NCBI GenBank assembly: GCA_024278855.1
Contig: JAJRSJ010000021.1
Span: 4,181-68,180, forward strand
Direction: 5' to 3'
DNA from: Alphaproteobacteria bacterium
Lineage (GTDB): Bacteria > Pseudomonadota > Alphaproteobacteria > Caulobacterales > Maricaulaceae
Length of the DNA stretch: 64,000 nt
Shown: positions 10,299-33,447 of the stretch, one piece after another
Position numbering within the stretch: the stretch's first letter is position 1
Layout of the letters: every line of letters starts with the position of its first letter
Made by a program: the position numbers and the translations under genes
Notes under the pieces: generated by a model
What the model was told of the DNA's origin: nothing
The model's database searches: none
The model's input: only the letters and a program-made list of their open reading frames with translations

Positions 10299-10374
10299 TG
10301 GTGGGTGATAACGGGATCGAACCGCTGACCCTCTCCGTGTAAAGGAGATGCTCTACCATCTGAGCTAATCACCC
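10299..10374 (-). tRNA. tRNA-Val (anticodon UAC)
   Basis: The reverse complement folds as a cloverleaf: GGGTGAT TA GCTC AGATGGTA GAGC A TCTCC TTTACAC GGAGA GGGTC AGCGG TTCGATC CCGTT ATCACCC A CCA. It is 76 nt with an encoded CCA. Confidence 0.9.
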
Positions 10375-29022: not shown

Positions 29023-30198
29023 ATGAGACAAGCCGTTATCGTATCCACCGCCCGCACCCCCATTGGCAAAGCGTATAGAGGCGCGTTTAACGCCACCCCG
29101 TCCCCGACCATGACCGGACACTGTATTGACGCGGCGGTGAAACGCGCCGGACTTGAGGGCGGCGAAGTGGATGATGTGATTATCGGCTGTGCCATGCAAC
29201 AAGGTGTACAAGTGACCATTGGGCGAAATTCCGTTTTGGCCTCGTCCCTGCCCGTCACCGTCTCGGCCCAAAGCGTTGACCGTCAATGCTCCTCCGGCAT
29301 GATGGCTATTGGTATCGCCGCCAAGCAAATCATTTGCGACGGCCAACAGATCGCCATTGGCGGCGGTGTTGACAGTATCTCCATGGTTCAGACGGCGGAA
29401 ATGCGCTACGCCGTTGACCCAACCGTTCTTAAAAACCACCCCAACGCCTACATCCAAATGATCGACACGGCGGAACTTGTTGCCAAGAAATACGGCGTTA
29501 GTCGGGACGCCATGGACGAATACGCGGCCCAGAGCCAAAACCGCACCCACGCCGCCCAGGAAGCCGGAAAATTCGACGATGAAATTGTACCGCTCACGGC
29601 AACTATGAAAATTCAAAACAAAGAGACAGGCGAAATTTCCGAAGCGAAGTACACTCTGGACAAAGACCAGGGCAATAGACCCGGCACCACCGCCGAAGGC
29701 CTGTCCGGTCTCAAACCCGTGCGCGGGCCTGATTTCACCATCACCGCCGGTAATGCCAGCCAGCTTTCGGACGGTGCTTCGGTCAGCGTTCTGATGGAAG
29801 CCGGCGAAGCCGAAAAACGCGGACTGGAACCGCTCGGCATATATAGGGGCATGGCCGTCGCCGGACTAGAGCCAGAAGAAATGGGCATAGGCCCGGTGTT
29901 CGCTATCCCCAAATTGCTAGCCGCTAACGGGCTGAAAATGGACGATATCGATCTATGGGAGCTGAACGAAGCATTCGCCGTGCAGGTCATATACTGCCGC
30001 GATAAATTAGGCATCCCCAACGAAATCATGAACGTAAACGGCGGCGCCATAAGCATCGGCCACCCATATGGTATGAGCGGCGCAAGAATGGTCGCGCATA
30101 GCTTAATCGAAGGCAAAAGACGCGGCGCGAAATATGTTGTGTCAACAATGTGCGTAGGTGGTGGTATGGGGGCTGCAGGCTTGTTTGAGGTTGTTTAG
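29023..30198 (+). CDS. acetyl-CoA C-acyltransferase (thiolase)
   Basis: [22 protein letters not shown], active-site VDRQCSSGM, and C-terminal [19 protein letters not shown]...[15 protein letters not shown] lies upstream of the ATG at 29023. Confidence 0.93.
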
Positions 30199-30342
30199 AC
30201 CGTTTGGAAAATCTGATAACCATCTATTCCTCACGATATTCATGACTCTATTTTAATGGTGACAGCACTTAAATAATGTGTTTTAACGCTTATATAATAA
30301 ATATATGCGAATAAATTGCACAAACGGAGCTTAGGGAGCGCT

Positions 30343-31662
30343 ATGTTAATTGAATTTTCAGTGGAGAATTTTCGATCCTTTGCTGAAAAGCAAACATTTT
30401 CAATGGTGCCTGCCGTTGGTTCAAGCCGTATCCATAGTCTCGACAATAACTTTTACCCAGAAGTTTTGAAAGTATCAGCCATTTATGGGGCGAATGGTTC
30501 TGGAAAATCTAATCTTGTTGATGGTTTGAGTTATTTTCAGCATGTTTTAAGGCGGAGTGCAAAACTTAATTCCACCGACAGCGTTGCATATGATCCACAT
30601 GTCCTTGATAGGTATTATCGGCACAGCCCATCACGTTTTGAAATCACTTTCTTTTATGAAAAACAATTTTGGCGCTACGGCTTTAGTGTGACCGCCACAC
30701 AAGTTCACGAAGAATGGCTTTATGTTCGCAAAGAAAACCCTGGCTCACGGGAACGGCATTTGTTTAAAAGAACCGTGGATGAACCAGTTTTTCTGCATGC
30801 TTCGCTAAATAGATATAAAAAATTTCTGAATGAGGATATGAACCCCAACCAGCTTTTGTTATCCAAACTTGATCAGAGCAACGCGGAACTTGTAAAGCCC
30901 GCTTTTCGCTGGCTTGTTTTTTACTTGCGCCCCATTGGCAGGTTGGATAGCGGTTACCAGTCAGTTACCGCGGAGAAATGCTTGGAGCCGACGTCAAGAA
31001 AAGCAGTCGTCGAGTGTTTGCAGTCAGTCGCTATTGATCTAATGAGCATCCATGTTGATGTTGACAGACGTGAATATAGTCCCGAAAATCTTAAAAAGAT
31101 GTTCGAGAGGAACGTATCTAATACTGGCACATTCAGCATTGTAGATGACAAGCTTGTAACTCATGATATTTCTTTTATTCATCAATCTCGGCAAAAGAAC
31201 GATGTTTCCATCAGTCTAAGCGAAGAATCAACTGGCACACAAAATTTATTTGCTTTAGCAGGTCTCCTCCTTGATGCTTTAGAGCATGGTTTGACGTTCA
31301 TCGTGGACGAGCTAAACCAAACGTTCCACACCAAGGCATTAGAGCAAATTATCAGCTTGTTCTATAGTGATGAGGTAAATACTAATGGCGCACAGCTCAT
31401 TTTCACATCCCATGATACGGCGATTATGGATATGATGGAGCGCGACGAACTCTGGCTTGTTGACAAGGATTCAAACGGCGCCTCCAAACTATTCAGTATT
31501 GCAGACTTTGGCACGATTAGACAAGGTGGTGCGCGAAGGCATGAAGCATTTGGAAGGCGTTACCTTGCTGGACGATATGGAGCACTTCCTGATATTGATC
31601 CCATCGGCGCTATCAGTGCGCTAAAGAAAAGCCAAATGCGGCGCGATGAAGAATTAAATTAG
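30343..31662 (+). CDS. AAA_21/ABC-like ATPase (AbiLi-like partner of an RloB protein)
   Basis: MLIEFSVENFRSF, Walker A GANGSGKS, signature-like SEESTGTQNLF, Walker B TFIVDELNQTFH and H-loop TSHD. The gene is AT-rich; a spot GC count of 30361-30420 is 43 percent. Confidence 0.8.
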   Translation: MLIEFSVENFRSFAEKQTFSMVPAVGSSRIHSLDNNFYPEVLKVSAIYGANGSGKSNLVDGLSYFQHVLRRSAKLNSTDSVAYDPHVLDRYYRHSPSRFEITFFYEKQFWRYGFSVTATQVHEEWLYVRKENPGSRERHLFKRTVDEPVFLHASLNRYKKFLNEDMNPNQLLLSKLDQSNAELVKPAFRWLVFYLRPIGRLDSGYQSVTAEKCLEPTSRKAVVECLQSVAIDLMSIHVDVDRREYSPENLKKMFERNVSNTGTFSIVDDKLVTHDISFIHQSRQKNDVSISLSEESTGTQNLFALAGLLLDALEHGLTFIVDELNQTFHTKALEQIISLFYSDEVNTNGAQLIFTSHDTAIMDMMERDELWLVDKDSNGASKLFSIADFGTIRQGGARRHEAFGRRYLAGRYGALPDIDPIGAISALKKSQMRRDEELN

Positions 31663-31666
31663 GCCT

Positions 31667-32329
31667 ATGGCACGCCGCAGACCGAGAAATCAACGCCAAG
31701 AAAAACCCTTGCTTTTGATATTGTGTGAAGATCAGGGGGGCGTCAAAACTTATATTGAACAAATAGCCAAAAGCATTTTACTTAGGAGTGCAATAGCGGT
31801 CGATATTCAAGGCATCGGAGAGGGACCGGGCAAACTCTACCAATATGCCAATATGGCGCTGAGGGGAAGCTCACGCAAATTTCCAAATAAAGCAGACATG
31901 GTATTCCTAGTGTTCGACAAAGATCGGCATGAAAGCTTTGATGAAGTGCTTGTGAAATCAAAAAATCATGACCGTATTCATTTATTTGCCAGTATACCCT
32001 GCATTGAAATGTTTTTTATCCTGCACTTTCAATATTGTTCAATGCCTGCAAATTGTTATGATGATTTATTGGGAGTGCTAAAGGCTATCCCAGAATTTAA
32101 AAAATATAACAAAGGAAGTGGTTCGGTGCCCGTAGCAAAAATGCGAGACATTCAAGCAGATGCTTTGGTAAATACAGATAGATTGAGAACCGAACGTCGT
32201 AAAACCAGAAGCAAAAACCCCATGACCGATATGGATATTTTTATTGAATTTCTAGAAGACATAGCAACTAATGGTTTAGTCAACATTATTGGCAATAATG
32301 ACCAAAAATTTCTACATAACGACCCCTAA
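31667..32329 (+). CDS. RloB-like (AbiLii-like) Toprim-type protein
   Basis: LLLILCEDQGGVKTY (Toprim Glu), VFLVFDKDRH (DxD) and ASIPCIEMFFILHF match the RloB family pattern CEGE.TE ... D.D ... SNPCFE.W.LLHF. It starts 4 nt after the ATPase stop. Confidence 0.75.
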   Translation: MARRRPRNQRQEKPLLLILCEDQGGVKTYIEQIAKSILLRSAIAVDIQGIGEGPGKLYQYANMALRGSSRKFPNKADMVFLVFDKDRHESFDEVLVKSKNHDRIHLFASIPCIEMFFILHFQYCSMPANCYDDLLGVLKAIPEFKKYNKGSGSVPVAKMRDIQADALVNTDRLRTERRKTRSKNPMTDMDIFIEFLEDIATNGLVNIIGNNDQKFLHNDP

Positions 32330-32331
32330 CC

Positions 32332-33447
32332 TCACCCCAAAACGCTATCTGCCTCCACATACGCCAAGCCAAGCGCCTCTCCCACAGCCGCATAGGTCAA
32401 CTTACCCTCCGCCACATTCAACCCATTTTTCAAATGCGCATTATCGCGCAGGGCTTGCTTCCAGCCTTTGCCCGCAATATTTAATGCGTGGTGCAATGTG
32501 ACTGCGTTTAGGGCGTAGGTGCTGGTTCTGGCGACGGCGCCGGGCATGTTGGCTACGCAGTAGTGGACTATGTCGTCTACGATATATGTCGGGTCGGCGT
32601 GGGTTGTGGCTTTGGAGGTTTCGAAACAACCGCCTTGGTCGATGGCCACATCAACCAGAACCGCGCCCGGCTGCATGGTTTTTAGCATGGCACGGGTAAT
32701 CAATTTTGGCGCGGCGGCGCCCGGTACCAACACGGCACCAATCACCATGTCGGCGGTTTTGATCAGTTCCGTCAGCACGGCAGGGGTGGAGCGCACGACT
32801 TTTGCGGACGCTCTGAAATAATTGGACACTTGCTCCATGACATCCGGACTGCGGTCAAGAATGGTCACATCAGCTTGCAGGCCCACGGCCATTTGCGCCG
32901 CGTTAAAGCCGACAACCCCGCCGCCGATGACCACGACTTTGGCCGGAGCAACCCCCGGAACCCCGCCGAGCAATACGCCGCGCCCGCCGTTGGATTTCTC
33001 TAGCGCCGTCGCGCCCGCCTGCACCGACAAACGCCCGGCCACCTGGCTCATGGGTTTGAGCAGCGGCAAATCGCCGCCGTCGCTGGTCACGGTCTCGTAG
33101 GCAATGCCGATACAGCCGGATTTCAGCAGTGCCTTGGTCTGTTTTGGGTCGGGTGCCAAATGCAAATATGTGTACAGAATTTGCCCCTCGCGCAGCATTT
33201 TGCACTCGGTAGGTTGCGGCTCTTTGACCTTAACAATCATATCAGCACGGGCAAATATTTTTGCTGCCGATTTGGAGACAGTGGCTCCAGCGGCGCGGTA
33301 CGCCCAATCGTCTGCCCCGATACCGTTCCCGGCACCAGCCTGCACAACGACCTTATGGCCAGCGGCCACAAGCTCCGATACACTTTCCGGCGTCAAGCCA
33401 ACCCGGTATTCATGGTTTTTAATCTCTGTTGGCACACCGATAAGCAT
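32332..33447 (-). CDS. ald: alanine dehydrogenase
   Basis: [20 protein letters not shown] and the NAD fold [14 protein letters not shown]. 371 aa, with an AGGAGA RBS. Confidence 0.93.

Follow-up and report, generated by a model that had tools for sequence, protein, structure and literature searches.

A probable AbiL-type anti-phage module fills the thl–ald spacer of a Robiginitomaculum chromosome

What does a compact, AT-rich block wedged between a thiolase gene (thl) and an alanine dehydrogenase gene (ald) encode, and how did it come to be there? The question is raised by positions 30199-32331 of a 64,000-nucleotide stretch of alphaproteobacterial DNA (contig JAJRSJ010000021.1 of assembly GCA_024278855.1), hereafter called the window. 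Its source is the marine alphaproteobacterial genus Robiginitomaculum: the thiolase orthologues at 89-97% identity all come from metagenome-assembled genomes of that genus. An original prediction, made from the letters alone, had described the block as a horizontally acquired, AbiL-like pair of an ATPase gene and an RloB/Toprim gene. We consider it likely that the block is a functional AbiL-type two-gene anti-phage module, of the abortive-infection or toxin–antitoxin-like sort, carried in the Robiginitomaculum chromosome as an accessory cassette of about 2.1 kb that fills the thl–ald spacer. The block adds a further case to a type of defence system that is already known and does not represent a new kind. 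Family membership, intact catalytic motifs, purifying selection, coupled pairing and a patchy presence with alternative cargo are established here.

The cassette consists of two co-directional open reading frames (ORFs), abiLi (30343-31662, + strand, 439 aa), encoding an ABC/Rad50-SMC-like ATPase, and abiLii (31667-32329, + strand, 220 aa), encoding a Toprim-like putative nuclease of the RloB family. The TAG stop of abiLi is followed by 4 nt and the ATG of abiLii; coordinates and gap agree exactly with those first given. The ATG at 30343, and not an upstream TTG at 30316, was taken as the start of abiLi because its homologues open with MLIEFS in the family alignment. At 41.1%, the block has the lowest GC content of 1238 overlapping 2133-bp windows across the 64 kb, whose mean is 50.0% (sd 2.5%). 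Spot counts of 43.3% at 30361-30420 and 63.3% at 29041-29100 reproduce the figures (43% and 63%) from which an AT-rich block had been proposed.

Searches with profile hidden Markov models (HMMs), suggested as the first check of the prediction, identified both proteins. For AbiLi, the PADLOC AbiLi model was by far the best (1.2e-86), with AriA of PARIS second (1.1e-30), and two Pfam models scored above their cut-offs, AAA_21 (1.6e-29, 104 bits, cut-off 27) and AAA_15 (1.3e-9, 38.6 bits, cut-off 32.1). The match of AbiLii to Pfam RloB (2.7e-20, 73.8 bits, cut-off 31.5) spans profile positions 2-195 of 195; among the PADLOC models the protein hit AbiLii alone (1.3e-12). No NCBIfam model reached its cut-off for either protein. 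What had been called AbiL-like is thus, by both PADLOC models, AbiL proper. As both proteins exceed curated Pfam cut-offs and the pair is kept in other genomes, the feature is far beyond chance.

AbiLi carries a complete set of ATPase motifs: Walker A GANGSGKS (aa 49-56; 30487-30510, +), the ABC signature SEESTGTQN (aa 293-301; 31219-31245, +), Walker B FIVDEL (aa 319-324; 31297-31314, +) and the H-loop TSHD (aa 355-358; 31405-31416, +). In an alignment of 61 homologues, G49, N51, G54, K55, S296, G298, T299, D322, E323 and H357 are invariant. An AlphaFold2 model of the protein (predicted local distance difference test score, pLDDT, 90.2) was searched with Foldseek and matched Rad50/SMC heads (E values down to 1e-12), PtuA of Septu (4e-11) and the retron type I-A ATPase (3e-10). 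A sequence search of the PDB with AbiLi or AbiLii returned nothing relevant. Among alleles, aa ~60-280 are the most variable part of AbiLi, with non-synonymous differences per site (pN) of 0.16-0.26 as compared with 0.01-0.03 in the first 60 codons. In AriA, proposed trigger-recognition insertions lie between Walker A and the signature (PMC11464382), the interval that the variable region of AbiLi occupies; by this analogy the region is compatible with a sensor role, which it does not prove.

In AbiLii, motif I lies in LLILCED (aa 16-22; C20-E21-D22 at 31724-31732, +), a DxD motif in VFLVFDKDRH (aa 79-88; D84-x-D86 at 31916-31924, +) and the third block in ASIPCIEMFFILHF (aa 108-121; S109-x-P111-C112-x-E114 and H120 at 31991-32026, +), with further core residues at Y147/K149 and P185/T187. 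All eight peptide motifs originally quoted for the two proteins were found at the expected places. Across 154 sequences D84, E114 and H120 are invariant, while E21, D86, S109, P111, C112, Y147, K149, P185 and T187, each conserved at a level of at least 90% in the family, are all present here. The RloB core, namely a Glu after β1, a DxD after β3, SxPCxE...LLHF, Y.K and NP.T, is therefore complete. In the AlphaFold2 model (pLDDT 93.6), β-strands 15-20, 44-49, 78-84 and 104-110 alternate with helices; E21 closes strand 1, D84-x-D86 closes strand 3 and S109-x-P-C-x-E114 follows strand 4. As modelled, strands and motifs come in the order that the definition of a Toprim domain in PMC6755086 leads one to expect. 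The sole significant fold match was a phage protein annotated as RloB-like (E 4.6e-8, template modelling score 0.68-0.70).

How the pair came to lie between thl and ald was addressed by a survey of relatives, in which a tblastn survey of 85 loci (loci are labelled L001 and so on) was followed by ORF and HMM analysis and by junction comparison. In the window, the cassette sequence starts directly after the stop codon of thl, a conserved host gene for acetyl-CoA acetyltransferase (29023-30198, +; Pfam Thiolase_N and Thiolase_C). It ends with the abiLii stop TAA at 32327-32329, which 2 nt (CC) separate from the stop at 32332-32334 of ald, the convergent alanine dehydrogenase gene (32332-33447, −; Pfam AlaDh_PNT_N and AlaDh_PNT_C). 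The promoter and terminator scanner called no terminator-like site at the cassette, a Pfam scan of the neighbouring genes revealed no integrase, and a search for flanking direct or inverted repeats or a target-site duplication gave only short, chance-level matches around it, so the bare junctions described at the outset are borne out.

In two genomes, L009 and L013, the same spacer lacks cargo; it measures 154 and 95 bp, respectively, and contains a hairpin in both. That empty-site hairpin is displaced at the abiLii–ald junction of the window (32327-32334), where no terminator was called, so that read-through from the cassette would run antisense to ald, and vice versa. At least three lineages have an AbiL pair in the spacer; in L001/L002/L003 and L008 its AbiLi is 76% and its AbiLii 71-72% identical to the proteins of the window. 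Other loci have other cargo: L010 a single AbiD/Abi_2 gene, likewise of low GC (Pfam 8.9e-53, PADLOC AbiD 1.6e-62), L011 genes for YCII and an ECF-type sigma factor, L014 DUF4345 and a small unknown ORF, and L007 a 5.2-kb block that encodes glycosyltransferases, an M23 peptidase and an outer-membrane-like protein. Past thl, L006 (11177-12950) has first a short ORF resembling, by eye from its translation, a transposase C-terminal fragment and then unrelated genes; ald is absent there, and the arrangement suggests a local rearrangement. The AbiL pair is missing from L006 and L007, the relatives nearest to the window by thiolase identity (97%). All variants of the slot diverge directly after the thl stop and directly before the ald stop, and no recombinase is present. 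An 8-nt match, CCATCTAT, between the empty L009 spacer and that of the window was considered as a left junction and dropped, the variants diverging at the stop codons.

The cassette is not confined to this site. Together with its leader it is also found between GST and aldolase/SDR genes (L004/L005 and L087/L088), which constitute a second recurrent slot; in L004 (8629-10615) it lies ~25 kb from the thl–ald junction of L011, on the same contig (JAJFFN010000016.1), where that junction holds different cargo. The two genes stay together, ATPase first, with a gap of 3-4 nt or an overlap of 8 nt in L001, L004, L008, L086, L087, L089 and L091. Relatives of AbiLi were found on 166 plasmids, among them plasmids of 3.5 kb whose sole cargo is the pair, annotated there as abiLI, and the PADLOC and Pfam scores of the window proteins equal those of such a plasmid pair. 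The nearest relatives of the pair outside Robiginitomaculum are only 37-46% identical. Because the slot is empty or holds the same pair, AbiD or other cargo in relatives, and because the same cassette has a second locus, the data support an accessory, mobile and horizontally acquired cassette, despite the lack of an integrase and of repeats. The junction comparison that had been proposed thus points to an accessory insertion, and horizontal acquisition, claimed from the start, is supported by patchy presence, the second locus, plasmid relatives and the lowest GC of the window. Since neither a recombinase nor repeats are present, the simplest route of spread is exchange by homologous recombination within the conserved flanking genes, and the cassette probably moves in this way and not by site-specific recombination.

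These loci also bear on a different reading, in which the pair would be an RloAB-type accessory of restriction–modification (R-M), or another DNA-transaction factor of the OLD- or RecF-like repair kind, with no stand-alone defence. The first descriptions of RloA and RloB came from within type I R-M loci of Campylobacter (as cited in PMC10440598 and PMC13064643), some AbiLi homologues are annotated RloA, and the AbiLi fold is that of Rad50/SMC/RecF-type heads. Yet no hsdR, hsdM, hsdS or other R-M genes adjoin the pair here or at the related loci examined, and patchy presence and low GC speak against a housekeeping repair role. We regard this reading as very improbable.

Both genes have been maintained. 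Comparison of the window with the L008, L001 and L004 alleles gave a pN of 0.13-0.18 against synonymous differences per site (pS) of 0.73-0.87, and abiLi and abiLii are accordingly under purifying selection. The pS of the flanking genes was 0.47-0.52 for thl and ald, 0.78 for MscK (leaving aside its L008 row, which was out of frame) and 0.64 for AsnC; thl and ald are codon-biased, with a third-position GC (GC3) of 0.63-0.65, and MscK is less so. The pS of the cassette (0.73-0.82, with a pN of 0.14-0.17), higher than that of thl and ald, had suggested alleles older than the host split, an idea rejected because the values for MscK and AsnC remove the contrast. These data are consistent with a single insertion followed by vertical descent.

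Motif I of AbiLii is divergent. An exhaustive HMMER search through 1.84 billion representatives yielded 1138 relatives of RloB, only 7 of them with E < 1e-30, and the nearest sequences beyond the 50%-identity cluster of AbiLii itself are 37-41% identical to it. The protein belongs to a sub-clade of ~20 representatives, which spans several genera together with the partner ATPase and is marked by a short N-terminus, by a C-terminal tail of 18 aa, where the family median is 2 aa, and by a motif I of the form (C/S)(E/Q)D..G in place of the family's CEG..TE. The window reads CEDQGGV: the canonical second Glu is absent, G22 being replaced by D and E26 by V. Among 150 aligned family members the two positions covary, G22 occurring with an acidic residue 26 in 91/91 sequences and D22 with a non-acidic one in 57/59, and Gln at position 21 is found solely alongside D22 (8/8). 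The divergent subfamily that had been surmised from this motif is real in the sense of a sub-clade with a deviant motif I and a tail; the D22 state is not unique to it, being common in the RloB family (59/150 sampled representatives). Judged from the alignment, the CEDQGGV motif is a difference of sub-type and does not exclude the protein from the RloB family.

A structural reading of this change can be offered by reference to BpOLD, in which E400/D455/D457 bind metal A, E404/T506/E508 bind metal B and K562 completes the site (PMC6755086). On the basis of the model and of motif order and spacing, the BpOLD residues E400, D455, D457, E404, T506, E508 and K562 would correspond to RloB positions E21, D84, D86, E26, S109, E114 and K149. 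The sub-clade would then be without E26, the equivalent of E404, and D22 probably takes over as the metal-B carboxylate, a relocation that is suggested by the covariation of positions 22 and 26.

The same motif could instead be taken as the mark of a dead nuclease in a decaying or inactive remnant that is being lost. Such a reading draws on the loss of the E404-equivalent, on the change of E21 to Gln in 8 representatives of the sub-clade, and on the lack of a terminator and the 2-nt convergent junction with ald. It accords poorly with two full-length ORFs whose pN is far below pS, with the invariance of D84, E114 and H120, with a change at D22 that is systematic (57/59), unlike random decay, and with the retention of the sub-clade and its partner ATPase across several genera. 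We hold it to be most unlikely and keep to a functional AbiL module.

A second unusual property lies upstream of the genes. The cassette leader (30199-30342, +) was delimited by aligning 5-7 copies of the cassette that lie at two genomic sites: its first part (30199-30249) is common only to copies at the thl–ald site, whereas from ~30250 on it moves with the cassette to other loci. The travelling part includes the conserved elements ATTTTAATGGTGACA (30250-30264), a perfect −10-like TATAAT (30293-30298), a palindrome-like element ATGCGAATAAATTGCAC (30305-30321; GTGCA-N7-TGCAC in other copies) and a GGGAG resembling a ribosome-binding site (RBS) at 30334-30338. Six copies have in common ATTTTAAT..TGACA, TATAAT, a palindrome of the GTGCA-N7-TGCAC type and the RBS. 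Between the window and L008 the last 93 nt of the leader are 97% identical, though silent sites elsewhere are saturated. Conservation extends into the gene, the first 150 coding nt of abiLi being 83-94% identical to five related copies as compared with 64-81% for the remainder; identity at third codon positions is 0.56-0.86 in codons 1-50 and 0.40-0.61 elsewhere. The leader and the first ~50 codons (30250-30500) are far more conserved at the nucleotide level than other parts of the cassette or silent sites of the host.

The scanner called no consensus sigma-70 promoter in the leader, where the perfect TATAAT and a weak −35 are visible by eye. A structured RNA in the leader and 5′ coding region was considered and found to be unsupported (folding z = 0.29, no Rfam match at E <= 1). 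From its motifs, the leader may hold a promoter and operator, and the 5′ conservation could reflect either recurrent gene conversion at this spot or a promoter/operator whose constraint reaches into the start of the coding sequence.

An operator of this kind would also suit a selfish toxin–antitoxin (TA), or addiction, module, with AbiLii as the toxin, the AbiLi ATPase as the antitoxin and no significant anti-phage role in this host: the conserved palindrome could be autoregulatory. NetFlax assigns AAA ATPase + TOPRIM_OLD/RloB pairs to its network of type II TA systems (PMC10440598), some minimal plasmids of 3.5 kb bear this pair alone, and the genes are tightly coupled with that of the ATPase first. 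Against pure addiction, lactococcal AbiL confers abortive infection, acting after phage transcription (Deng 1999, as related in PMC13064643, the only AbiL phenotype information reported there). Moreover, the same slot holds AbiD in the relative L010, as fits selection for defence, and a chromosomal copy has little to stabilise. TA and abortive-infection roles can also coexist, PARIS being both. We consider addiction without defence unlikely, if less so than the R-M or remnant readings.

How an AbiL defence module might work can be sketched by analogy with PARIS and OLD. AbiL has been grouped with both as an ABC ATPase + TOPRIM system (PMC11464382), its ATPase falls into one clade with that of PARIS (PMC11464382 Fig. 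6c), the AAA partners of TOPRIM_OLD/RloB toxins have been predicted to act as antitoxins (PMC10440598), and in PARIS itself AriA senses the trigger and frees AriB (PMC13064643, PMC11464382). By this analogy, AbiLi, an ABC/Rad50-like ATPase, would oligomerise and keep AbiLii inactive, with its variable central region serving to sense infection. On a phage cue, AbiLii would be released or activated in an ATP-dependent manner. As a predicted two-metal Toprim-like nuclease, AbiLii would cut host or phage nucleic acid and so halt phage production, its target being perhaps DNA, on the model of OLD and Gabija, or a tRNA, on that of PARIS. AbiL would thus probably run on a PARIS-like logic of a sensor/antitoxin and a released nuclease.

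Several points weigh against this picture. The AbiLii model found no Toprim or OLD structure among PDB entries in a Foldseek search (best E 5e-3, generic flavodoxin-like folds), and the RloB family profile matched nothing among PDB sequences. The Pfam OLD-like_TOPRIM model was touched by only 4/81 RloB members, at E >= 0.07, and alignment of the RloB profile to the P2 Old Toprim with hhalign gave E = 0.26, with a template built from only 4 close sequences. The kinship of AbiLii with Toprim and OLD proteins, as originally asserted, therefore stands on the literature and on the correspondence of motifs and topology, while fold and profile searches fall below significance. That 8 representatives of the sub-clade have Gln at the canonical Toprim Glu is unexpected if this Glu is essential, and the covariation of positions 22 and 26, for which a Fisher test gives p = 1e-39, is measured by a statistic that ignores phylogeny. 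A 2026 review states that the mechanism of AbiL still awaits experimental test (PMC13064643). The same review reports that models of AbiLii and AriB superimpose poorly (PMC13064643), and PARIS may therefore mislead on target and stoichiometry.

By itself, the cassette is one more AbiL system in a family already catalogued by PADLOC and DefenseFinder, and the gain is modest; only the motif covariation and the nucleotide-conserved leader go beyond routine annotation. To our knowledge, no structure or mechanism has been determined for RloB, and the 22/26 covariation together with the Gln21 variants offers concrete, testable predictions for its active site. A bolder proposal, which we advance tentatively and think more doubtful than not, joins both features: D22-type RloB proteins may form a mechanistically distinct AbiL subtype, with the metal-B carboxylate moved from position 26 to 22 and catalysis free of the classical Toprim Glu, and the leader and first ~150 coding nt of the integrase-free Robiginitomaculum cassette, constrained as nucleotides, may be an unrecognised travelling regulatory element. 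The thl–ald spacer is a clean natural defence slot without an integrase, being empty or filled with AbiL, AbiD or unrelated cargo within one genus, and is useful for tracing the turnover of defence genes in marine Alphaproteobacteria. With its native leader, the compact 2.1-kb cassette is also a handy construct for asking whether all ATPase + Toprim systems act like PARIS.

The neighbouring genes in the window encode an MscK-type channel, the thiolase, alanine dehydrogenase, an Lrp/AsnC regulator and an SRPBCC protein; no helicase was found among the neighbours of the cassette. Upstream of the MscK orthologue, L001 (1-3650) contains phage-like large terminase and portal genes (Pfam Terminase_6N/6C and Phage_portal), which could represent either a prophage or a cluster of gene-transfer-agent genes; in the window, the matching position is taken instead by genes for a sigma-70 family factor, a nucleoside transporter and tryptophan catabolism. 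A tRNA-Val(TAC) at 10299-10374 (−), the only Rfam or ARAGORN match in the window, is unconnected with the cassette.

Among known systems, Septu (PtuA/PtuB) and retron type I-A have ATPases on which the AbiLi model superposes (E 4e-11 to 3e-10) and share with it the theme of an AAA_15/21 sensor ATPase; there the partner is an HNH nuclease (Septu) or a reverse transcriptase with multicopy single-stranded DNA plus HNH (retron), whereas here it is RloB. With the OLD family (P2 Old in class 1, Gabija GajA in class 2) it shares the coupling of an ABC ATPase to a nuclease, here a putative Toprim-like one, but its domains lie on two polypeptides and the E404-equivalent is absent. In Gabija, moreover, GajA fuses ATPase and Toprim and acts with the UvrD-like GajB, whereas the window proteins are separate and have no UvrD/GajB helicase as partner or neighbour. 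RloA/RloB of the Campylobacter jejuni type I R-M loci are drawn from the same two Pfam families, and some AbiLi homologues bear the name RloA, yet no hsdR, hsdM or hsdS lies near the pair.

PARIS (AriA/AriB) resembles the pair in that both split an ABC ATPase from an effector of Toprim type, putatively so for AbiLii, and AbiLi matches the PADLOC AriA models. Here, however, the effector is RloB (PF13707), with no match of protein 2 to DUF4435 (PF14491) at E <= 0.1, and the trigger Ocr and the target tRNA-Lys are those of PARIS. Closest of all is AbiL of the Lactococcus lactis plasmid pND861, on the PADLOC and DefenseFinder models. The window pair differs from it in being chromosomal, in a marine alphaproteobacterium, and in its (C/S)(E/Q)D..G motif I, short N-terminus and 18-aa tail, but it shares the two coupled genes with the ATPase first, the combination of AAA_15/AAA_21 with RloB and the setting in mobile or accessory DNA, and both PADLOC models of AbiL are the best matches here.

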